From positions 39,841-103,840 of the IMG/VR virus record IMGVR_UViG_3300021356_000797: DNA of 64,000 nucleotides. One strand, written 5' to 3'. Both the position numbers and the translations under genes were made by a program. This DNA is from a virus. The notes under the pieces were generated by a model, which saw only the letters and a program-made list of their open reading frames with translations, had not been told where the DNA came from and made no database searches. The number at the start of each line of letters is the position of its first letter. The stretch's first letter is position 1. This document shows positions 22,749 through 41,520 of the stretch, piece after piece.

Positions 22749-25700
22749 ATGGCTTTTTGTAATATAAAGACTAAACAGGCTCAAGGACTTGCAAACATTA
22801 TTGCAAAAGATGTAGCAAACAAAAGAAACGCAGGCACTCCTTACAATGTAGAGGAGGCTATGCGTAATGTCTACAATCTAATGATTGAGAATGGCCAAGA
22901 CAAAGATAGAGCTGTAACCATGGCAGCCTTAGTACCCAAAGCTGTAATTGCACAAGTTGGTCAGTATGCTCCTAACGGTGCCTACTTAGCTCCTATTCTA
23001 GGTAAAGTGGGTGAGCTGGTAAGTAAAGCCACAGACTTTAATTCTGTCATAGAAGTAATGGGTCTACAAGAAGAGTTTGCTGAAAAGTTAAATGATGTAG
23101 AACAAGCTCAAAATAATGAGATAGATGTAGAGTCTCAACCTCAGTCAGTTGAATTACCTAAAGTAGAATTAGTAGGTGGTATTCCACTTGTAGATTCAGG
23201 ATTAAGTACTACGGTATTAGAAATAGGTGACGCTGAAGGAGATCCAGCAGTAAAAGCTAATGGAGAATTTATTAGAAAGTTTATTCGCCTTGGTCAATTG
23301 CAGAGTAAAAACTTTTCTGAAGCTTATGTCTTAGATAAGATTTCTACTTACAAACTAGCATTGGTATCTTCAACTAAGATTCCTCAAGAGTCTAGAGTAA
23401 AAGCAGACGTTTATGGTCCTGTAGTATATGCATTTATTGATAGTCAGGGTAGAATTGTAACTGATGAAAACGGTCACACTCCTCACGCATTTGTAAGACC
23501 TGTTGAAAAAACTGAAGATGGTTATGTATTTAGAAAAGAGAAAAGTACCAGCAGACTTCAGATTAATAAGACAAACGCTAATAATTTAGGCCTTACTTTA
23601 GAACAGTTTGAAAAGAAAATTAAAGCTGAGGCTAGTTTCTTAAATAATGCTGCTAGAAGAATATCATCTTCTCCAGATACTATTATTCCACTAGAAGCTG
23701 TAAGAGGTACGCTTGGTGTAATAGCTAATGCTAAATCAGTTCCACTTAAAAGTATTCCTGATTTCCAACAGGAGTTTTTATTACCTGAAGGTATTGGATC
23801 TGGTACTGGTAGAATTGCTAACGTTAGCACTTTAAATAAAGATGGTAAGGTTAACGTTTATCAGGCGTTTGTATTTCAGTATCCTGGATATGATTATACA
23901 CTTCAAGCAAACGGTTTGTTACTCCGTGACACGGAATATGCCCCAGCAATCAAAGAGATTTTATTATCAAATGATTACACCCCTCTTCAGAAGAAGAACT
24001 TACTTTTTAATATTCTACAAAAGAACGTCCTTGATTTTGCAGATACTGGTGTAAAGATCCCATACTATGGTCCTAATAGTAAGGGTATCATGGTTGTTAA
24101 GGGTAAGAAAGCTATAGACTTGTCTAAGCCAGAAGAAGCTGCAAAACTTGTTGATGACTATATTAATAGAGCATATGTTAATGTGCCTATTGATTCTAAT
24201 CAACAGTATGAGTTTGATGGTCCTGTATTAGTAAGTACAAGTTCTAAAAATAAAACCTTTTTGGAGGGTGAAGATGGTACAAGATATGAATTTGAAAACG
24301 TAGTTAGTAAGTATGAGGTTGGCAAAATTCAAATGGTTAACCATATATACAATAATTTTAGAGTGTATGCTCCTACGGATTCTAAGGGTAACCTTATTAC
24401 CCCTAGTCCAGTAATTACATACAAGGCCCCTATAGAAGAAGCTCTTGCTACACCAGAAGTTTTTCAAGAAGAAAGTGTAGAGCAGATCCAAGAAGAATTA
24501 AAACTCTTAAAATCAGAACAAGCAGAAGGTAGTGCAAGTCTAGAAGATATCCTTAATCAGATTCCAGAGGACATGCCTTCTGATATGAATAAGGTATTTG
24601 GTAGAAAAAGAACCAGCCTGGATAAAGTAGATACTTTGTCTAGTGAAGCAACAGCAAAACAAATTGCTGAAGCTAAAGCTTGGTTTGAAAGTTCTCCACT
24701 ATCTAAAGTTATTCCTGTAGAGAAATGGTTTGAGATTGTAAACAGTGGTAAGGTTGCAGAATTTACTGCTAATGCTATTAAGTTGTTTGCTGGCTCTAAC
24801 TATACAGATCTTTACCATGAGGGATGGCATGGGTTCTCTCAGTTGTTCTTAACTAAAGCTGAGAAGGTTGCCCTATACAAAGAAGTAAGAAAGTTACATG
24901 GTAACATTACATTCTTAGAGGCAGAAGAATTACTAGCTGAGGATTTCCGTAAGTATCGTTTAAGTAATGGTACAATGGTGATGGATAAATCACCAGCTAA
25001 GCGTAGCATCTTTAAAAAGATTTTAGACTTCCTAAGAGCTTTGTTTGGTAACACTGAGACTAAGGTTCAGTACCGTGAGATGGTGGCTCAGGAGAAGGCT
25101 CTGCAAGTTATTAAGGAGTCTTATGACATGTTATATAGAGGAGAGTTTGAAGAACGTAAACCTAATATAGACAACTCATTCTTTCTTACTCTTAATAAAG
25201 GTGTAGAAGGAGCAGACGGTAAAGCGCTATCAGCTAAAGATTCTAAAGATATCTCTGATGCAATGGATTCTATTGTAGCTGGTATTATTAGAGACTACTC
25301 ATCTAGCCCTAAAGAAGTACTTAATAAGGAAGGAGCACTTCAGTCTCTTTATAATACTGTTAAGTTTAGACTTAGAGTGCAATTAAAACTTGCAAGCTCT
25401 GCTTCTAAAGTTGAAGACTATACTAAACTATCAAAGGAAGCTAAGTCTGATTTTATAGAGCAAGAGTTTAAATCAATTCTAGATAAGTTTGAAGATGTAG
25501 GCTTAAGAGATGAAAATAAATCTTATATTCTATCACAAGCTGAAATTGTATTATCTAAGCCTGTTGATAAGAACGCATATTACTCATTAGGTTTAGCCTT
25601 AACAAATTTTGGTGATACTGCTACCCTAAAAGATAATGCAGAAAGCACAATGCTTGGGTATCACTTTAAAACTTCAAGATACCTAGAGTCATTAGCTAAG

Positions 25701-34500: not shown

Positions 34501-36955
34501 TTTTGCATTAGCAGACAAACTAGTGCTTACCAAGTCAGATGTTACAGAGCTAATGGAGGATTCTATCTTTGTTAATACTATCATGCAAGATAGAGAGTTT
34601 GCTAAGTGGTATAACCGCAATCATATTGTTAACAAGAAGAAAGGTACTGTTGAACGTACAGCTCTGTGGAATGTAAAACGTCCTGCAGATAGTCAATTCT
34701 ATAAGACAATGGTTCTTCCTACTGGAGAAGAAATCATGAGGGTTCCTAATAGAACTTTCCAAGAGAGAGTTATAAAGGAGGAATATATTAATGATAGAGT
34801 AATAGGTGAAACTGTTGATGTATGGGGTAACTATTTACCTGATCTTTCTGTTAAGAATAATCCTTATAGAAACGATGAATACTTTAAGTTGAAGAAAGAA
34901 AATCCTTCAATGTTTAAAGCACTGAAAGCACTTTCTGATTGGCATTTATCTAAACAAGAAGGCCTTAATGTAACAGCTAGATTAGGATACCAGATTCCTA
35001 GATTTAGACCGGATAGATTAGAAAGACTTCAAGAGCTTAGTAAAGCGGGAGCTCTAGGTAAAGCTATTGATGATGCTAAAGAAAAAGTTTTAGAGAGTGT
35101 AGATGATATACAAGAAGGTTACAACTTTGACCAAAGACAGTTAGCAACATTTGGTATTATTGATGATAGCTTATCTGAAATTCCTATTTATGGTGTAGCT
35201 AAGTTAGATAGCCCTAACGTTTCTCTTAATGTTATGGATAGCATTCTTAGATATAATAGTTCTGCTATTATGCAAGAGATGCATATTGAAACAAGCCCTA
35301 TTGCTCAAATGCTAATGAGTGTTGTAGAAGGTGTAGATGAGAGTACTAGCTTAAAAGATCTTACTAAGATAGATAGACAAATGCTTAAGAGAACTGGTCA
35401 GGTTGTAAACAGATCTTATAAAAAGATTTCTAAGTATGACTCAATCAGATCTATGGCTCTTACAGCATTCTACGAGAGAGAATATTTGGGTAAGCGTCAT
35501 GCTGAAACACCAATAGATAGAGCTGCTCCAGGTTTTAGAAAAGGTTATAGGTCTGCCCAAAAGCTTACAGGTATGGCAATGAGGTTAGCTTCTACATCTT
35601 TCTTTGCTGTAAACATTCCGTCCGCATTAAAGAACCGTTTTGCAGCTGTATTACAGAATAATGTTGAAGCGGTAGCTGGTGAAGTAATGACACCAGAAGG
35701 ATTCTTGAAAGGTAAAGTAATGGCTAAAAAAGCTATTGCTCAAATTAGTTCTACAATTACTTCAGATAAAGTAAGAGGTAAGCACGTTCAGATTGCGCAG
35801 ATCTTTGATATTGATGGGCAGTTGGATAAGCAGAGAGGCGCTGTATCAAGAACGTTTGCAAGAGATGCAGTATCACTAAGCTGGTTGTTCTCTCCACGTA
35901 AGTTATTACAGATGGATGGTACTCTAGAGCTATTGTATGGAATGCTACATAGTAAAACTATAGAGCTTAAAGATGGATCTAGAGTTACATTGGGGGATGC
36001 ACTAGAACTTAAAGATGGTCAACTACAAGTAAGACCTGATACTAAAGAAGACTGGTCACTAACTAGTGATAACTTTATTAAGTTCCGTATTCTATACCAA
36101 GGTAAAATGAATAGGCTTCAGGGTACTTACGATGCTATTGATCAACCTTTATTTGCTAGATATCTTGTAGGTAGAATGATGTTGTTCCTTAGAAAGTATT
36201 TTATTTCTATGTTCATGCACAGATTTGCAAGTGCAAGAATTCAGTATGATACTAGACAGATGGAAGAAGGATACTACAGATCTGGTCTAAGATTTGTAAG
36301 CAATCTTGTAAAAGCTTTTATTAATCAGTCTAGACATGGAGGTCCCTTTGCAGAGTTTGATAGAAACACTGCTTTAGAAAGACAAGGTGCTAAAAGAATG
36401 GGAGCAGATATGTTACAACAGATAGTTCTTTTAACTGCTTATAAAGCATTGATGAAAGTTCTATTTGGATATGATCCTGAATCAGATGATGATGATGAAA
36501 GAAAAACGGCATTGTTACGTAGAGGATCAGGGGCCCTGCCGTTACCTTTAACGAGTTCTAAATATGATTACAATCCTGTTGGCTGGTTCCAGCTGCATGC
36601 TATTAATCAAATGATGCAGGTACATCAAGAAGCTGCTACATTTACACCCCTAGCTTTAGATGGAAGCTCTCCATTAGCAGGATCTATATTAGAAATGTTT
36701 ACGTCTCCATATAGCGCTATTGCAGCACCAACAGTTAGTAGAGGTATGGATATATATAGTTTAGGAAGAAAGACTATGAGAGGTGATAGAGGAGCTTATT
36801 ATACTCGTGATGTAGGTCCATGGATGTGGCAAAAGCAGGGGTCAAGTAAGATGGCTGCAGAAACTTTAAAATTTATTGGATTAAATGGTAAGACTGTAGA
36901 TCCCGCAAATGCTATTGTTCAGTGGCAACAAGGTCAAAAGCTACGCAAGAGATAA
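31538..36955 (+). CDS. Large virion ejection protein with N-terminal zincin-like domain (crAss giant protein 3)
   Basis: HEFSH at 31949-31963 followed by 'EEAIVRA'; long helical body; 'MMLFLRKYF' C-terminal region. Confidence 0.7.
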   Translation: MQACPNVSSPQWRQLVSVVGEMEAYRDFMTHGTIRDVASVLMSVKSRTPEQNAKIQRASSIIENSIVELNNTMAAAGLHKLAGEISNNLGVAYETVSVQDAYEILQEADTKYNGEPSFFYQGKVYFVNAILNKDMVLHEFSHPLVRAIKNDNPALFDKLYQEAMTTPGVADIISEKYSDQSVEAQQEEAIVRAMALAKPEGGFWKRIAYALKQLLRKVFGRQVKVSNLSKDTTLADLFQMMQTEEFNIDFIDSSNDNVVGFIREQKTLNDFLANEASSPKIEILLQDLQTLNNHAARLVEDPQVEKAIGEFLETEGGRYIFDEIARELGKSKQFNKEAEKYIKNERPMPADLASLVLTRNLNVLSNSIAQLDVLLKNLGEASVKLSSDPSQAELIETQAIYKIVQGIQVWAGSLESLMRENKVPPGNEVRQEVGRIGLTAQEIEAEVRDIFKEFAIDFLYEENSDIREQLEAYYDEKLAQLKKEKAAGNNVDSRIKRLQKQRSEKLLTRENLRKILSGELGDINIAGAMLENFLQSPDPVIGGFASWYRRQAYKAQTKMQAQTNEFIQKVLPVLKEAGYNPNNPQSFFRQILFLDKTVRMKATEDEIIGEETYQLEEYEVYTLLNPYKNYLADRKILQEKIERAQIIDDVKALQDLYQQREEMDKNFHRRYTKTYYDAFEEYNTPVGKIARQKLDDLYNELTQIDDEINGYDDIDITDEDFTRKKLVLREIRQLYSEVDIYGNKKKGEDLEIAQLLKRVREKSQDFYEYNEIPGLFDVAYNNFLESIQDVEFGSEEYDTLINDWLESNTEVAVTDDYFALVDQILTEIEDLQKQLGMESESVKKTYDTIRDISKGFRDSSNEVEATAITPEAQKKVKDLQQKLLNFRAEMVKLNGLTQAESDRLTELLEKKNKEGRIDRDEMLEIRSLFDKKKAQGKDPALLKRLFALYATLSELRQTEPTQYYADAISAHLSRIKSEGTVPGLFGGAFALADKLVLTKSDVTELMEDSIFVNTIMQDREFAKWYNRNHIVNKKKGTVERTALWNVKRPADSQFYKTMVLPTGEEIMRVPNRTFQERVIKEEYINDRVIGETVDVWGNYLPDLSVKNNPYRNDEYFKLKKENPSMFKALKALSDWHLSKQEGLNVTARLGYQIPRFRPDRLERLQELSKAGALGKAIDDAKEKVLESVDDIQEGYNFDQRQLATFGIIDDSLSEIPIYGVAKLDSPNVSLNVMDSILRYNSSAIMQEMHIETSPIAQMLMSVVEGVDESTSLKDLTKIDRQMLKRTGQVVNRSYKKISKYDSIRSMALTAFYEREYLGKRHAETPIDRAAPGFRKGYRSAQKLTGMAMRLASTSFFAVNIPSALKNRFAAVLQNNVEAVAGEVMTPEGFLKGKVMAKKAIAQISSTITSDKVRGKHVQIAQIFDIDGQLDKQRGAVSRTFARDAVSLSWLFSPRKLLQMDGTLELLYGMLHSKTIELKDGSRVTLGDALELKDGQLQVRPDTKEDWSLTSDNFIKFRILYQGKMNRLQGTYDAIDQPLFARYLVGRMMLFLRKYFISMFMHRFASARIQYDTRQMEEGYYRSGLRFVSNLVKAFINQSRHGGPFAEFDRNTALERQGAKRMGADMLQQIVLLTAYKALMKVLFGYDPESDDDDERKTALLRRGSGALPLPLTSSKYDYNPVGWFQLHAINQMMQVHQEAATFTPLALDGSSPLAGSILEMFTSPYSAIAAPTVSRGMDIYSLGRKTMRGDRGAYYTRDVGPWMWQKQGSSKMAAETLKFIGLNGKTVDPANAIVQWQQGQKLRKR

Positions 36956-36977
36956 GATTAATATCTTACATTTTAAC

Positions 36978-37008
36978 AAGAGGGGTTTTTATAAGCCCCT
37001 CTTTTTTT
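36978..37008 (+). terminator. Rho-independent terminator after the giant-protein operon
   Basis: AAGAGGGG...CCCCTCTT stem followed by a T-run. Confidence 0.8.
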
Positions 37009-37025
37009 GTATTTTATATATATAG
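37002..37025 (+). promoter_or_regulatory. Putative phage late promoter (motif copy 4), overlapping the terminator T-tract
   Basis: TTTTTTTGTATTTTATATATATAG upstream of the lysis genes. Confidence 0.45.
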
Positions 37026-37039
37026 AACCAACAATTCAT

Positions 37040-37291
37040 ATGATGTTTAATAAATTAAAAACCAAGATCATGGCGTTTGCTGATATCTTTAAAGATGAGA
37101 ATGATTACAATGAGAAAACAATCATTGGGTTTATGTCATTTGCTGTTATGGTAATCTTTGCCGTAGCAGATTTGGTTACCGGATATGTTGGTAAGGATTT
37201 AGTTATTAACGAAGGGATCTACAACTCTTTTGTATTTATCACTTTAGGTAGTTTTGGAATTGCAGGTCTTGAAAAATTTGCAAAGAAATGA
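37040..37291 (+). CDS. Putative holin (2 TM); start at 37040 or 37070
   Basis: Two hydrophobic helices and basic C-terminus (EKFAKK); overlaps the endolysin candidate by ATGA. Confidence 0.55.
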   Translation: MMFNKLKTKIMAFADIFKDENDYNEKTIIGFMSFAVMVIFAVADLVTGYVGKDLVINEGIYNSFVFITLGSFGIAGLEKFAKK

Positions 37292-37758
37292 AATTAGAAG
37301 TATTAAGATTCAGCAGTCAGGACGACAGCACAAACGGAATTTTATTTGATGTCACAGAAGGAAGAAAGTTTTTATGCTACACTCTTGAAGATGAGTATAG
37401 GGAGACAAAAGTTATGTCTGAAACACGAATTCCTGCTGGCACATATAAGATCACTCTTAGAACGGTAGGCGGTCACCATGAAAGATACACTAAGAAATAT
37501 GGTGAAATGCACAAAGGCATGCTATGGGTACGTGATGTGCCTAATTTTAAGTGGATCCTTATTCATACTGGTAATACTGATGAACACACTGCTGGGTGCC
37601 TCCTTGTTGGTGATAGTCAACAAAGCAATCTTATCAAGAGTGATGGTTTCACAGGTTCAAGCACTCAAGCGTATAAAAGAATCTACCCTCCAATTGCTGC
37701 AGCGTTGGAAGCAGGGGAAGAAGTAACAATCACTTACATAGATTACGATACTGTATAA
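37288..37758 (+). CDS. DUF5675-family protein, putative endolysin (L,D-peptidase-like)
   Basis: 'YTLED', 'TRIPAGTY', 'VPNF..ILIHTGNT..HTAGCLLVG' with His/Cys motif. Confidence 0.75.
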   Translation: MKLEVLRFSSQDDSTNGILFDVTEGRKFLCYTLEDEYRETKVMSETRIPAGTYKITLRTVGGHHERYTKKYGEMHKGMLWVRDVPNFKWILIHTGNTDEHTAGCLLVGDSQQSNLIKSDGFTGSSTQAYKRIYPPIAAALEAGEEVTITYIDYDTV

Positions 37759-37775
37759 CAATCAATTAAATCAAC

Positions 37776-37910
37776 ATGGCAAAACACATCAACAGTTCAT
37801 ACCGGGCAAACACAAAGAAGAGTAGACCGGGGGTTCATTCAAAGAATGGAACGAGCAAGAACAAGTCATCAGTAAACTACAAGAAAAAGTACAGAGGGCA
37901 AGGAAGATGA
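37776..37910 (+). CDS. 44-aa basic protein ending KKYRGQGR (not in ORF track)
   Basis: Translated by hand: MAKHINSSYRANTKKSRPGVHSKNGTSKNKSSVNYKKKYRGQGR; ATGA overlap with next gene. Confidence 0.75.
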   Translation: MAKHINSSYRANTKKSRPGVHSKNGTSKNKSSVNYKKKYRGQGR

Positions 37911-38122
37911 CAAAGAAAAGTTTACTTGATAGGGACAACATTGAGTTGTGGATCTTAACTCCAGAAGAGGAAGCTGAGATTGCAGAAGTACTGGCTTGGG
38001 ATGAGACAATCACCGAGGCAGAAGACTTGTTTAGAACTGAACAATTTAAAAAGCTTTCACTATGGAAAAGATTTTATCTAAGATTAAGAGTAGCGTTGCT
38101 ATCCTTCTTACAAATGTTGTAA
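37907..38122 (+). CDS. Hypothetical protein
   Basis: 71-aa ORF translationally coupled to the upstream gene. Confidence 0.55.
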   Translation: MTKKSLLDRDNIELWILTPEEEAEIAEVLAWDETITEAEDLFRTEQFKKLSLWKRFYLRLRVALLSFLQML

Positions 38123-38304
38123 CCTGGACGAGTGTACGTATGGTATACTTGCTGATGTCCTTGGTGTTATTCACTGGATGGGTGACACGTACTTGGGACA
38201 TTGTAGGTTTTGTTATTGTAATGTTACAGGTTGGTGTATGGACGAAGTTCTGTCCAAGCAAGTGGGTGTTTGAAAAGTTAGGTTGGAAAAAGACTGAGCT
38301 ATAA
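38062..38304 (+). CDS. Small membrane protein, YgaP/DUF2892-like (start may be 38140)
   Basis: Two TM helices then 'TKFCPSKWVFEKLG'; TAATG coupling to the kinase. Confidence 0.6.
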   Translation: MEKILSKIKSSVAILLTNVVTWTSVRMVYLLMSLVLFTGWVTRTWDIVGFVIVMLQVGVWTKFCPSKWVFEKLGWKKTEL

Positions 38305-39203
38305 TGTCTGTACTTGATGGAATATCAATAAGGAGTAGGATCTGCCTACTGTGCTCCACTATAATCATGTTGACATTCTTTGTCTTCAAGACTATGGTGG
38401 TGTTCCGTTTTATACATCATAGTACGTTTACCCATTACTTTGAGTGGCTGAGTGTAATAGCGTTTATGCCTCCGTTCTTTGTAGTTGTTAGAGAATTCCT
38501 TCAGAACAAAGAGAGAATCAAAGGTGATCTGAACCAAAAGAATATATATCTAGAGCATGCTGCTAAGATTATTAGACATGACATGCACAGTGGAATCAAC
38601 ACTTATTTACCCAGGGGTATCAAATCATTAAAGCGCAGGTTAACTGATGAGGATATTGCTGAGCTAAAGATTGGAAGTCCTTTGAAATTGATACAGGATG
38701 GACTACATCACGCACAGAAGGTATACAGTGGGGTATATGAGTTCACTAATCTTGTTAAAGAGGGTGCACAGCTAAACAAAGAAGTTAAAAATGTAAAGGA
38801 GATCTTGGGTGATTATCTCAAGCTTACTGCATATAAGAATCAGGTTGTACTAGATGATAGTCTAGATACACCGTTAGAAGTAAATGAGGCGCTGTTCTGT
38901 ACAGCGGTAGATAACTTTATAAGAAACGGCCTAAAGTATAATGATTCTGGTACCAAGTATGTAAAGATATACTTCCAGAATAACTACAATAAGGCATTAC
39001 TATTGATCATAGAAGATAACGGGCGTGGTATAACTGCTGAGGAATTTGTTGAGCTCAGTAAACCATATGTCCGTAAAGAAGGACAGAAAGAAACTGGTAC
39101 GGGATTGGGACTGAACATCTCAATTTCTATTTTAAAAGAACATGGATATATGGTACGGGCTGAGAAAACAGAAACCGGTACTAAAATAATTATTGAGATA
39201 TGA
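38304..39203 (+). CDS. Membrane sensor histidine kinase
   Basis: Two N-terminal TMs; H-box 'IIRHDMHS', N-box 'NFIRNGLKYN', G1 'IEDNGRGI', G2 'GTGLGL'. Confidence 0.9.
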   Translation: MSVLDGISIRSRICLLCSTIIMLTFFVFKTMVVFRFIHHSTFTHYFEWLSVIAFMPPFFVVVREFLQNKERIKGDLNQKNIYLEHAAKIIRHDMHSGINTYLPRGIKSLKRRLTDEDIAELKIGSPLKLIQDGLHHAQKVYSGVYEFTNLVKEGAQLNKEVKNVKEILGDYLKLTAYKNQVVLDDSLDTPLEVNEALFCTAVDNFIRNGLKYNDSGTKYVKIYFQNNYNKALLLIIEDNGRGITAEEFVELSKPYVRKEGQKETGTGLGLNISISILKEHGYMVRAEKTETGTKIIIEI

Positions 39204-39634
39204 TTGATACGTTGATGCTTATAGATGATGAGAATCTATTCCACTTGGTATTTGAGGATGCATGCAGCATGTTAGATATAGCACTTTCTATAGAGGCACT
39301 GGATAGCAGCGATGAAGCTGATAGAAAATTTAAAGGTTGGTTTCCTGACAATGGGGAAGAAAGACCACAATGTGTATTTGTAGACTTGAATATAATTGGA
39401 TCTTCATATGACGGTATTGAGATGATCCGTAAAATAAATGAAGATTATGGTAATGGATGTGTTATTGGTATTATTTCTAGTAGCAGTGATCAGGCAGAGA
39501 TTGAGAAAGCCAAAAAAGTAGGTGCACAGTTTTGGATCATTAAGTCAGATGACATTGAGCCAAGACTAGAAGAGTTTAAAAAAGATTATAACGGGTATGT
39601 TGATAAGACTGCTCCGTTTAAAGTATATAGATGA
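39200..39634 (+). CDS. Single-domain response regulator (CheY-like receiver)
   Basis: 'LIDDE', phosphoacceptor 'FVDLN', 'IISSS', 'FWIIK'; no output domain. Confidence 0.9.
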   Translation: MIDTLMLIDDENLFHLVFEDACSMLDIALSIEALDSSDEADRKFKGWFPDNGEERPQCVFVDLNIIGSSYDGIEMIRKINEDYGNGCVIGIISSSSDQAEIEKAKKVGAQFWIIKSDDIEPRLEEFKKDYNGYVDKTAPFKVYR

Positions 39635-40197
39635 TAAGTTCTAAGGATACAGTAAAGGACGCACTATTAAAAGCCAAGTCTAAAAAGGTTTATATAGAAG
39701 GTAACTTTGTCAAACTATTGTCTGACACAACCGATGATGACGTCAGGTTATACCTTGATGAATGTAAACGTAAAGATCAGGAGAATAGAAAGAAACGTCT
39801 TGCTGTAACCAAACAGATTCAAAAACAAAACAAAGAACTTGAGGAGGCTGCTGTAATAAACAAAGATCTACTTAGCGATCTTGAAAATAAGATGGAAGAG
39901 CTTGAAGCTTCTAAAAAAGAAGCTGAAGGTTTACGGGATGAAGCCTTGAATGATCTAGAAGTAATGCAAAAAAAGACTCAGTTTGAGTTGATTAGTATTA
40001 TAGTTAAACTTGCTTTGGGCGTTATTGCGGGTGTTGGTATACTCACTACGGTGTTGTACTTATATATTTTAAGTAGTGGTTTAGATTCTAAGATAATTGA
40101 AACCACCTGGTCCAATTTATTTGGTATATTGTTAACTAACTCATTTAGTATAGTTGGTACCATCATGGGTGTCAAGTATGCTACAGAAAAAGATTAA
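39631..40197 (+). CDS. Coiled-coil protein with two C-terminal TM helices
   Basis: Long heptad-like segment then two hydrophobic helices; ATGA-coupled to the receiver. Confidence 0.75.
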   Translation: MISSKDTVKDALLKAKSKKVYIEGNFVKLLSDTTDDDVRLYLDECKRKDQENRKKRLAVTKQIQKQNKELEEAAVINKDLLSDLENKMEELEASKKEAEGLRDEALNDLEVMQKKTQFELISIIVKLALGVIAGVGILTTVLYLYILSSGLDSKIIETTWSNLFGILLTNSFSIVGTIMGVKYATEKD

Positions 40198-40199
40198 TT

Positions 40200-40886
40200 A
40201 TGGCAGTAGCTAGATCTCACGATGATGAGGTCTTCAAAGCAAAGAGAAGACCTAAGAGGCCTATTAAGTTTAACGTTACCCTAAATGAAGAACAAAAGCA
40301 TGCAAAAGCAGAAATCCTTGATAACCCCGTCACTGTACTACAAGGTATGGCAGGAAGTGGAAAAACTTTGGTGGCAGTTCAAACTGGGTTGGATCTCTTA
40401 TTTACAAAGCAGATTGAAAAGATTATTATTACCAGGCCAACCGTTGCCAAAGAAGACATTGGTTTCCTTCCTGGAGATATCAAAGAGAAGATGGATCCTT
40501 GGCTTGCTCCTATATACCACAACTTGTACTTACTATATGACAAAGTTAAGATTGACAAGTGTGTTGAAGAAGGACTGATAGAGATTGTACCGTTTGCATT
40601 TATGCGGGGTAGAACCTTTACTGATGCTGTAATCATTTTAGATGAAGCTCAGAATGTTACAATGAACCAAATGGAGATGATGCTTGGACGTCTTGGTAAA
40701 GGAAGTACCATGATCATCTGTGGTGATAAAGCTCAGATTGATTTACGTAATAAGAAAGATTCTGGTTTTGGTTTCTTGTACACACTAGAAGCACAGGTTA
40801 AAGGGTTTAAAGTGATTACCCTTAAAACAAATCACAGACATGAAATTGTAGAACCTATACTTAAGGTATACGAAGATTATAGATAA
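40200..40886 (+). CDS. phoH: PhoH-family ATPase
   Basis: 'GMAGSGKT', 'IGFLPG', 'FMRGRTF', 'LDEAQN', 'GD..QIDL'. Confidence 0.95.
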   Translation: MAVARSHDDEVFKAKRRPKRPIKFNVTLNEEQKHAKAEILDNPVTVLQGMAGSGKTLVAVQTGLDLLFTKQIEKIIITRPTVAKEDIGFLPGDIKEKMDPWLAPIYHNLYLLYDKVKIDKCVEEGLIEIVPFAFMRGRTFTDAVIILDEAQNVTMNQMEMMLGRLGKGSTMIICGDKAQIDLRNKKDSGFGFLYTLEAQVKGFKVITLKTNHRHEIVEPILKVYEDYR

Positions 40887-41047
40887 TGAACTGGACCCTC
40901 ACCTTAGTTGCCCATTGGCCTCATGATAGATTTGCATTAGGCTTTGAGTCTTTACCTTCTACTGAAGAAGTACCCTTTCATACTATTCAGTTGTTTTTGC
41001 TGATATTTACTATCAGGCTGGACATGTGGCATGAGGATGAGTATTAA
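40886..41047 (+). CDS. 53-aa hypothetical protein (not in ORF track)
   Basis: MNWTLTLVAHWPHDRFALGFESLPSTEEVPFHTIQLFLLIFTIRLDMWHEDEY; TAATG overlap with phoH. Confidence 0.65.
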   Translation: MNWTLTLVAHWPHDRFALGFESLPSTEEVPFHTIQLFLLIFTIRLDMWHEDEY

Positions 41048-41094
41048 CGGTAAGTGAGGGAGAACTTAATCTCCCTCTCTCTTATCCCTTACCG
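41048..41094. terminator. Hairpin at the convergence of the two genome arms
   Basis: CGGTAAG/CTTACCG outer stem and GAGGGAGA/TCTCCCTC inner stem. Confidence 0.55.
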
Positions 41095-41318
41095 GCTTGT
41101 TGCTAACCATAGTGGTATGAATATTACGTGTGGCCAGTTTGACCAAGTATAAGAAGACAAATCAAGCGGGATACTTCTTACGTTGGCTGGTTAACCTTCA
41201 CTCCCTGTAAGCAGCAGAGAGGTTATTATCACACACAACCCGTTGTTAATCTGTGATTTTGAGTAAAATAAGGAAGAGGATGAAGTAAAGCATATCTATG
41301 AGGTTTACTTCAAATATA
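41048..41318 (-). ncRNA. Candidate structured non-coding RNA
   Basis: ORF-poor region with several hairpins; TATATTTG (-7 box) on the minus strand at 41311-41318. Confidence 0.35.
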
Positions 41319-41334
41319 AATAAACTTTTGAAGT

Positions 41335-41520
41335 TTATCCAATCACCTCTAAAATTTTTGTTTCCGTAACAGCAGTTACTTGGAAATCAGAAGGCATCAA
41401 GTGAGCCGTAATCTTTTGCTCAGCATCTGTTACAGATACAGCCATTACTAGATACAGTTCACTGGTTGCCTTTTCATCTTGGTGTTGAACCTTCACACGC
41501 ACTTGATAGTACTTCTCCAT
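41335..41520 (-). CDS. DUF4494-like protein
   Basis: 'ELYLVMAVSVTDAEQKI...VTAVTETKILEV' Bacteroidetes-type pattern. Confidence 0.65.
   Translation of the reverse strand: MEKYYQVRVKVQHQDEKATSELYLVMAVSVTDAEQKITAHLMPSDFQVTAVTETKILEVIG

Follow-up and report, generated by a model that had tools for sequence, protein, structure and literature searches.

The signalling cassette

The DNA considered here is a stretch of 64,000 nucleotides, called the window in the following, which covers positions 39,841 to 103,840 of the IMG/VR virus record IMGVR_UViG_3300021356_000797. On its plus strand, between positions 38062 and 40197, four consecutive genes encode a small membrane protein (p80), a membrane histidine kinase, a stand-alone receiver, and a coiled-coil membrane protein of 188 amino acids (p188). 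The full gene order of the region is p94, DUF5675 lysin, p44, p71, p80, histidine kinase, receiver, p188, PhoH, and p53. A first reading of the letters alone (the original prediction) had described the region as a complete two-component signalling module inside a phage lysis operon, which might tune the timing of lysis. The open reading frames (ORFs) on which it was founded, from 38062 to 40197 and in the flanks, were all recovered together with their overlapping starts and stops. Within the cassette the junctions are TAATG at 38302–38306 between p80 and kinase, ATGA at 39200–39203 between kinase and receiver, and ATGA at 39631–39634 between receiver and p188.

Histidine kinase and p80

The kinase gene (38304..39203, plus strand) encodes a protein which is composed of two transmembrane helices, a short histidine-rich outer loop, a DHp domain with histidine 92, and a CA domain, and which has neither a HAMP nor a PAS domain. 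In Pfam it matched HATPase_c (PF02518) at 2e-13 and left the HisKA family unmatched, as its H-box, RHDMHSGINTY, is too divergent. Invariant in 34 relatives are histidine 92 and aspartate 93 of this H-box, asparagines 204 and 208, the residues D238-G240-G242, and the glycines G265-G267-G269. A profile search of solved structures gave HK853 as the best match (2.2e-14). The AlphaFold2 (AF2) model, with a predicted local distance difference test score (pLDDT) of 81.5, yielded a first transmembrane helix at residues 9–33, an outer loop of about seven residues (34–40), and a second transmembrane helix which starts at residue 41 and is continuous with the DHp helix, the two DHp helices comprising residues 41–112 and 124–150. 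The top structures in a Foldseek search with this model, CpxA, HK853, and EnvZ, were superposed on it. Judged from sequence and model, the protein is a class I (HisKA-type) sensor kinase with intact catalytic motifs and predicted activity. The claim of intact H, N, G1, and G2 boxes is thus borne out by the invariant residues, the HATPase_c match, and the class I fold. The proposed intramembrane-sensing architecture likewise stands, since the AF2 model has two transmembrane helices, an outer linker below about 25 amino acids, and no extracytoplasmic domain, but the loop, which had been put at about 12 amino acids, is shorter in the model.

The input side of the kinase varies among the relatives while the receiver and the N-domain of p188 stay constant. 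Besides the form of the window, which has transmembrane helices only, a form with transmembrane helices and a cytoplasmic PAS domain was found in 29 of 83 unique kinases (35%), and further forms have soluble PAS, multi-PAS, or GAF-PAS inputs or, in one case, a periplasmic domain. A divergent locus (L144:3923-7510) carries two kinases before the receiver with a secreted protein of 245 amino acids between them; the first kinase has two transmembrane helices and two PAS domains, the second a signal peptide, a periplasmic part of 145 amino acids, and one transmembrane helix.

The first gene of the cassette (38062..38304, plus strand) encodes p80, a YgaP-like protein with two transmembrane segments and a C64-P65-S66 motif which is invariant in the family alignment; it is a candidate co-sensor of the kinase. 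Members of this family have 62–80 amino acids, two transmembrane segments, and the invariant Cys-Pro-Ser. The YgaP-like_TM family (PF11127, DUF2892) was matched by 21 of 37 relatives, the best at 2.3e-5, but not at E<=1 by p80 of the window itself, so that the label YgaP-like holds for the family and not for the window copy. In 67 of 84 unique loci p80 is located immediately upstream of the kinase. It accompanies the membrane-anchored kinase forms and is rare beside soluble ones, a distribution which would fit the small accessory membrane protein that had been postulated for a kinase of this architecture.

In the outer loop of the kinase (window 38400–38450, residues about 33–48) a C-x5-C-x11-12-C pattern occurs in 49 loci and an HH-x4-H pattern in 14 loci including the window. 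It is a speculation that this cysteine- or histidine-rich loop and the invariant cysteine of p80 might serve a redox or metal cue for the membrane-anchored kinase forms.

Receiver

The receiver gene (39200..39634, plus strand) encodes 144 amino acids, comprising a receiver (REC) domain with aspartate 62 as the phospho-acceptor and a conserved C-terminal tail of 25 amino acids. It reached 33.1 bits with Pfam Response_reg (PF00072), for which the cut-off is 30.2, and was weakly similar to solved receivers (3ilh, 2e-4). The residues D9, D10, D62, S94, and K115 do not vary across 43 relatives. The protein is without an output domain, and its relatives mostly have 143–148 amino acids, up to 176 by ORF call. 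No other gene of the cassette is as conserved as that of the receiver, which has a mean column identity of 86%. The original prediction of a stand-alone receiver which has no DNA-binding domain and would act at the protein level agrees with this composition. A six-frame search of the phage genome with the Pfam REC model missed even the known receiver and is uninformative on further receivers.

The membrane protein p188 and its domain swaps

The last gene of the cassette (39631..40197, plus strand) encodes p188, the candidate effector, which consists of an N-domain (residues about 1–100), a coiled coil, and a hairpin of two transmembrane helices. In the AF2 model a single long helix lies between a small N-domain and a helical transmembrane hairpin. 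The hairpin ranges from about residue 120 to 184 and is preceded by an N-terminal extension of 120 amino acids; the C-terminus reads KYATEKD. In the family alignment the second transmembrane helix is near-invariant (WSNxFGILLTNxFSIxGTIMGxKYA). With two transmembrane helices, both termini placed inside on the basis of the charge distribution, a short charged C-terminus, and an endolysin gene nearby, p188 matches the layout of class II holins.

As the N-domain has no invariant histidine in the alignment, a role as a histidine phosphotransfer (Hpt) protein was rejected. A resemblance of the second transmembrane helix to MotA/ExbB/TolQ-like helices, suggested by a GT[IV]xG motif, found no Pfam support in 38 members and was rejected as well. 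A search of the viral structures in BFVD with the p188 model returned only an uncharacterised member of the same family.

An exhaustive search with a profile hidden Markov model of p188 yielded 250 clusters, where an earlier word-index search of longer proteins had given two uninformative matches. In several of these proteins the coiled coil and hairpin are fused to sensor domains, namely PAS-PAS (P0179), PAS (P0186), or GAF (P0167), with no kinase or receiver; P0179 is 50% identical to p188 over its residues 253–368. As the hairpin is fused to PAS or GAF domains without a kinase, it is likely to be an output which a fused sensor is able to drive. The N-domain takes part in the converse swap. 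In L146:8041-9090, P0252, P0259, and P0276 it is followed not by the hairpin but by a HisKA-HATPase core (hhalign 99.1%). A GAF domain which is 57–60% identical to that of P0167 forms the first domain of soluble GAF-PAS kinases in loci of the two-component type, and p188 is kept beside fully soluble PAS or GAF kinases (L145, L147, and the GAF-PAS loci). Taken from these arrangements, the N-domain of p188 appears to be an input module, and the kinase-receiver pair appears to hold the place which a fused sensor has in other phages. The simplest reading is that the receiver docks on the N-domain. The domain swaps and the constant place after the receiver make the 39631 product, which had been named as a possible target of the relay, the best candidate for the effector.

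One metagenome protein of 348 amino acids (P0198) joins the N-domain and coiled coil of p188 to an FecCD-type ABC permease domain; it may be a real fusion, or a chimera of assembly or gene calling.

Conservation, distribution, and mobility

At least 123 relatives of the kinase and at least 541 of the receiver were found in IMG/VR. In all 84 unique IMG/VR loci the order p80, kinase, receiver, p188 is kept with the genes co-oriented and the junctions mostly overlapping. Median ratios of nonsynonymous to synonymous substitution rates (dN/dS) were 0.065 for the receiver, 0.12 for the kinase, 0.22 for p188, and 0.23 for p80, with dS saturated. At E<=1e-5 the kinase profile was matched by 4,527 metagenomic proteins, the weaker of which may be generic kinases. 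A scan with the receiver profile through 185,579 prokaryote genomes, one per species, gave four matches, all on contigs of metagenome-assembled genomes (MAGs) from four different phyla, most plausibly phage DNA caught in the binning. The family is restricted to phages and under purifying selection. A recent, degrading acquisition from a host was rejected in view of dN/dS values of 0.065–0.23, invariant catalytic residues, and the lack of close cellular homologues. The cassette is therefore a genuine, selected phage two-component system, as its synteny in 84 of 84 loci, low dN/dS, and phage restriction concur.

The genomes which carry the cassette differ widely. A complete phage of 64 kb (G006, loci L148-L151) matches the window genome in kinase, receiver, p188, p94, and the DUF5675 lysin at 66–83% identity, all remaining matches being short and weaker, and a complete phage of 252.6 kb (G001) shares little more than that. 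Neither G006 nor G001 has a detectable match to the region of the window phage which encodes a virion RNA polymerase (vRNAP). By these comparisons the cassette sits on unrelated phage backbones. Because at high identity G006 shares only the signalling and lysis genes with the window phage, it seems that unrelated phages, which probably have the same hosts, exchange these genes as a group.

In L145, a contig of 89 kb binned into a 'Bdellovibrionota' MAG, genes which by eye resemble PrkA and SpoVR (L145:9805-13068, minus strand) adjoin a soluble PAS-kinase, receiver, and p188 set; the contig also carries NUDIX and Dam-like genes.

Linkage to lysis genes

In the window two lysis genes stand upstream of the cassette. 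The first (37040..37291, plus strand) encodes p94, a class II holin-like protein with two transmembrane segments and 83 amino acids from a Met-Met start, the real start lying at about 37040. It overlaps the lysin gene by ATGA. Members of its family have 73–87 amino acids, two transmembrane segments, and a charged C-terminus, and they adjoin endolysins; p94 has no match in Pfam or PHROG. The second gene (37288..37758, plus strand) encodes a DUF5675 endolysin candidate (PF18925 at 2.8e-26; phrog_1501) with a C82 or L,D-transpeptidase-like peptidase fold. DUF5675 has been placed among C82-like peptidase lysins in a preprint (10.64898/2026.04.11.717860).

In other lineages the neighbouring lysis genes are Phage_holin_4_1, PG_binding_1-Amidase_2, GH19, phrog_3000/endolysin-like, p94 homologues, and spanin-like ORFs, and both the side on which they lie, upstream or downstream, and the type of endolysin vary between lineages. 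Linkage was counted in unique loci whose two flanks each extended over at least 1.5 kb, with p94, Phage_holin_4_1, GH19, Amidase_2, phrog_3000 lysin, and DUF5675 accepted as lysis genes. The loci share ancestry, so that the counts do not stand for independent events: a lysis gene was found within 600 bp in 25 and within 3 kb in 26 of 51 marine two-component loci, in 21 and 27 of 41 loci of a second two-component set, in 32 and 37 of 44 PAS-PAS one-component loci, and in 34 and 39 of all 49 one-component loci. The decay with distance served as an internal control. In every set the lysis matches per flank fell from 0.25–0.43 in the first 600 bp to zero at 3–4.8 kb. In some one-component loci (L262, L251, and L166) the gene of the hairpin protein immediately precedes that of the endolysin, and the surroundings contain no further holin candidate. 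The linkage on which the original prediction was built extends well beyond the window phage, to three sets of loci with a steep decay, but it is not universal, as G006 and G001 show.

Proposed mechanism and alternative explanations

As the intact cassette is kept together and mostly lies beside lysis genes, the phage probably times the lysis of its host on a sensed signal. The explanation which we prefer, and to which sequences and models together give about an even chance, is a phage-owned phosphorelay which gates p188 as a holin- or antiholin-like membrane effector and so sets lysis timing on a sensed cue. The kinase, with almost no outer loop and with its second transmembrane helix running into the DHp domain, would read a membrane-proximal cue, probably together with p80. 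It would autophosphorylate at histidine 92 and pass the phosphoryl group to aspartate 62 of the receiver, which in its phosphorylated or unphosphorylated state would dock on the cytoplasmic N-domain of p188. The coiled coil would carry the signal to the conserved transmembrane hairpin, and the hairpin would advance or delay permeabilisation of the membrane and release of the DUF5675 lysin. Phosphotransfer, the contact between receiver and p188, the action of the hairpin in the membrane, the signal, and the time of expression are the parts of this mechanism which we infer. A wider proposal, that proteins of the p188 type form a new class of signal-gated holins or antiholins with swappable cytoplasmic inputs (receiver-docking domain, PAS, or GAF), is put forward tentatively, as possible rather than probable.

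Several observations weigh against a role in lysis, and some of them would be expected if the same relay and effector served another membrane function, such as superinfection exclusion, control of membrane energisation or transport, or counter-defence, and if nearness to lysis genes only mirrored where accessory genes accumulate. Accessory genes often settle in the flanks of lysis cassettes, so that adjacency alone is no proof of function, and the cassette moves among unrelated backbones like an accessory module. In G006 it is 21 kb and in G001 more than 119 kb away from recognised lysis genes, and about a third to a half of the loci have no recognised lysis gene within 3 kb. Some lineages have the cassette immediately behind genes for ribonucleotide reductase, which do not usually belong to the late genes. 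The window phage already has the holin-like p94; p188 is larger than typical holins and matched none of the holin families in Pfam and PHROG; the scores of 3 of 38 relatives with Phage_holin_9 did not rise above noise. The contact between receiver and p188 is deduced solely from the order of the genes and from the domain swaps, and neither the receiver nor p188 nor the hairpin occurs in 50,697 isolate-phage records. Against a function apart from lysis stand the steep decay of lysis genes with distance in three separate sets of loci, an adjacency which outlasts changes of endolysin family and gene order, and the one-component hairpin proteins which occupy the holin position directly upstream of endolysins. 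In addition, what G006 shares with the window phage at 66–83% is only the cassette and the p94/DUF5675 pair. Another membrane function is hence considered unlikely, though worth keeping in mind.

The receiver might also act on a soluble target of host or phage, in transcription, replication, or host signalling, with p188 as an accessory sensor or scaffold of the kinase. The conservation of the receiver, which exceeds that of the other genes and extends to its C-terminal tail, is what a conserved partner would call for, and p188 is a membrane protein as are known kinase accessory proteins of the LiaF and BceAB type. A scaffold, on the other hand, would not be expected beside soluble PAS or GAF kinases which lack a membrane part, where p188 is retained; the hairpin behaves as an output and not as an input when fused to sensors without any kinase, and the N-domain takes the input position of a second kinase. 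This makes a soluble target quite improbable. Hardly credible, finally, is a phosphate-starvation module together with PhoH, or a recently captured and decaying host two-component system. It could draw on the automatic names of the Joint Genome Institute (JGI), which label some relatives 'KdpD-like kinase', and on the PhoH-like ATPase gene (40200–40886; Pfam PhoH at 1.7e-63), which starts 2 nucleotides downstream of p188. PhoH and the small ORF p53 (40886–41047), to which it is joined by TAATG at 40884–40888, together occupy 40200..41047 on the plus strand and lie outside the conserved cassette. Both adjoin the cassette only in the four closest relatives (L003, L004, L009, and L082), and PhoH is elsewhere upstream, 5–10 kb away, or absent. 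As the adjacency of PhoH is not conserved, the link to phosphate which the original prediction had considered was rejected, and decay is already contradicted by synteny and selection: the catalytic residues are all invariant, dN/dS is 0.07–0.23 at saturated dS, and the scan of 185,579 genomes with the receiver profile returned no close cellular homologues.

Neighbouring genes and genome setting

Between the DUF5675 lysin and p80 are two small ORFs (37776..38122, plus strand), p44 at 37776–37910 and p71 at 37907–38122, which are both conserved near the cassette elsewhere. In tblastn searches p44 was found near the cassette in 28 loci and p71 in 65; neither has a family match in Pfam or PHROGs. 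The 44 amino acids of p44 are very basic and rich in lysine, arginine, and serine. It is loosely linked to the cassette: in the window it lies upstream, in L129-L137 about 600 nucleotides downstream, and in L005, L019, and L025 it is encoded on the other strand, next to homologues of p53. In L003 (7344-7493) and also in L006 and L008, an ORF of 49–56 amino acids with a lipoprotein-type signal (…ALTSC), resembling an o-spanin, lies between receiver and p188, and i-spanin-like ORFs with an N-terminal transmembrane segment and a coiled coil (clusters c57 and c19) were seen near the cassette in other lineages.

The source contig is an IMG/VR viral contig of 103,840 bp with an estimated completeness of 87%. 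Its plus strand carries a long block of virion genes including a run of giant ORFs (946–2929 amino acids), and the ORF of 2929 amino acids at 22749–31538 matches the vRNAP genes of crAss-like phages (best 4e-20). The giant vRNAP homologue within a run of giant genes indicates that the backbone is that of a distant marine crAss-like phage. Because of this kinship, a G+C content of 36%, and a DUF4494 gene at 41335–41520, a host among the Bacteroidota is likely. The virion block ends at the lysis and signalling region, which meets a convergent replication block at about 41.05–41.33 kb.

Two strong terminator-like hairpins were found in the hairpin scan, and they bracket the unit. One, on the plus strand 3' of a gene for 1805 amino acids, comprises a hairpin (36978–37003) with a T-run (together 36978..37010), followed by an AT-rich motif at about 37005–37030, and the other (41056..41077, plus strand) closes the plus-strand block ahead of the convergent replication genes. 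Internal candidates are weak, in agreement with the earlier remark that no terminator lies between 37040 and 41047. L004, L009, and L082 have the upstream hairpin and the TTTTTTGTATTTTATATATA motif that follows it in nearly identical form, while protein identity there is only about 80–90%. Since this element is almost identical in three relatives despite protein divergence, it suggests a terminator and promoter element which would make the lysis and signalling genes a separate transcription unit. A scan for the Bacteroidota sigma-A promoter consensus gave 1 match where 3.3 were expected, and a scan for sigma-70 promoters was no better than with shuffled sequence. A weak match to the Rfam family L20_leader at 36932–37015 (27.6 bits, gathering score 58.7) overlaps the upstream hairpin and is most likely a chance match on the stem-loop. 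The intergenic stretch of 288 nucleotides between the convergent blocks (41048–41335) has, by eye, a higher G+C content than its surroundings; as a structured RNA it was rejected, with no Rfam match there and a fold z-score of -1.2.

Significance and comparison with known systems

Lysis timing determines burst size and phage fitness, and only lysis inhibition of the T4 type and the ICP1 system are understood examples of its control by sensing. If the proposed phosphorelay is correct, a large and abundant group of aquatic phages, which spans crAss-like, about 64-kb, and jumbo backbones and hundreds of IMG/VR contigs, would carry a dedicated signal-transduction input to lysis, and a two-component output would act directly on a membrane effector without transcription. 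If the class of signal-gated hairpins is real, many aquatic phages could set lysis by energy or redox state or by nucleotide second messengers. Three defined components, namely a kinase, a receiver, and an effector of 188 amino acids, make the proposal testable, and the exchangeable PAS, GAF, and receiver-docking domains might find use as natural switches where lysis is to be controlled.

Kinase and receiver belong to established superfamilies, and both two-component signalling and lysis regulation are known in kind. New, in that it is not described in searchable papers, is a phage-restricted pair which would feed a virus-only membrane hairpin in lysis cassettes and which has one-component PAS and GAF versions. 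The literature search found no paper on phage-encoded kinase-receiver pairs in lysis cassettes, nor on sensor-fused holins.

The closest functional analogues are found in phages T4 and ICP1. In lysis inhibition of T4 the antiholins RI and RIII act with the holin T (PMC11413866, PMC8385771), and ICP1 encodes TeaA and ArrA (PMC7182436). As proposed here for p188, phage-encoded membrane or cytoplasmic regulators in these systems sense a condition of infection and shift the triggering of the holin. They do so by direct protein binding to the holin, with no kinase, receiver, PAS, or GAF domain, and share neither sequence nor domains with the window system, in which sensing would fall to a phosphorelay or to a sensor domain fused to the effector, itself a member of an undescribed hairpin family.

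Among bacterial systems LytSR of Staphylococcus is a two-component system linked to the state of the membrane which governs the holin- and antiholin-like CidAB and LrgAB. The likeness lies in a two-component system set over holin-like membrane proteins. LytS, however, has a 5TM-Lyt/His_kinase composition and LytR acts on transcription through a DNA-binding LytTR domain, whereas the window receiver has no DNA-binding domain and its control would be post-translational. As in the window system, the kinases of LiaFSR and BceRS-AB of Firmicutes have two transmembrane helices with hardly any loop between them on the outside, lack an extracytoplasmic domain, and are encoded beside a small membrane protein. 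The regulators of these bacterial systems are DNA-binding proteins which govern stress regulons, homology to LiaF or BceAB is absent, and 35% of the relatives of the window kinase add a cytoplasmic PAS domain, some being without a membrane part. With HK853-RR468 of Thermotoga and with CheY, Spo0F, and DivK the system shares the DHp and CA core, the H, N, G1, and G2 boxes, the five conserved receiver residues, and an output by protein contact, but the window family is restricted to phages, its H-box is divergent, and its proposed target is a membrane hairpin. In Caulobacter, DivK acts on DivL/CckA, which places a coiled-coil-linked signalling protein under the allosteric control of a single-domain receiver. 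Although there is no sequence kinship and the setting there is the cell cycle, the fusion of the p188 N-domain to a kinase core in L146 follows a similar logic.

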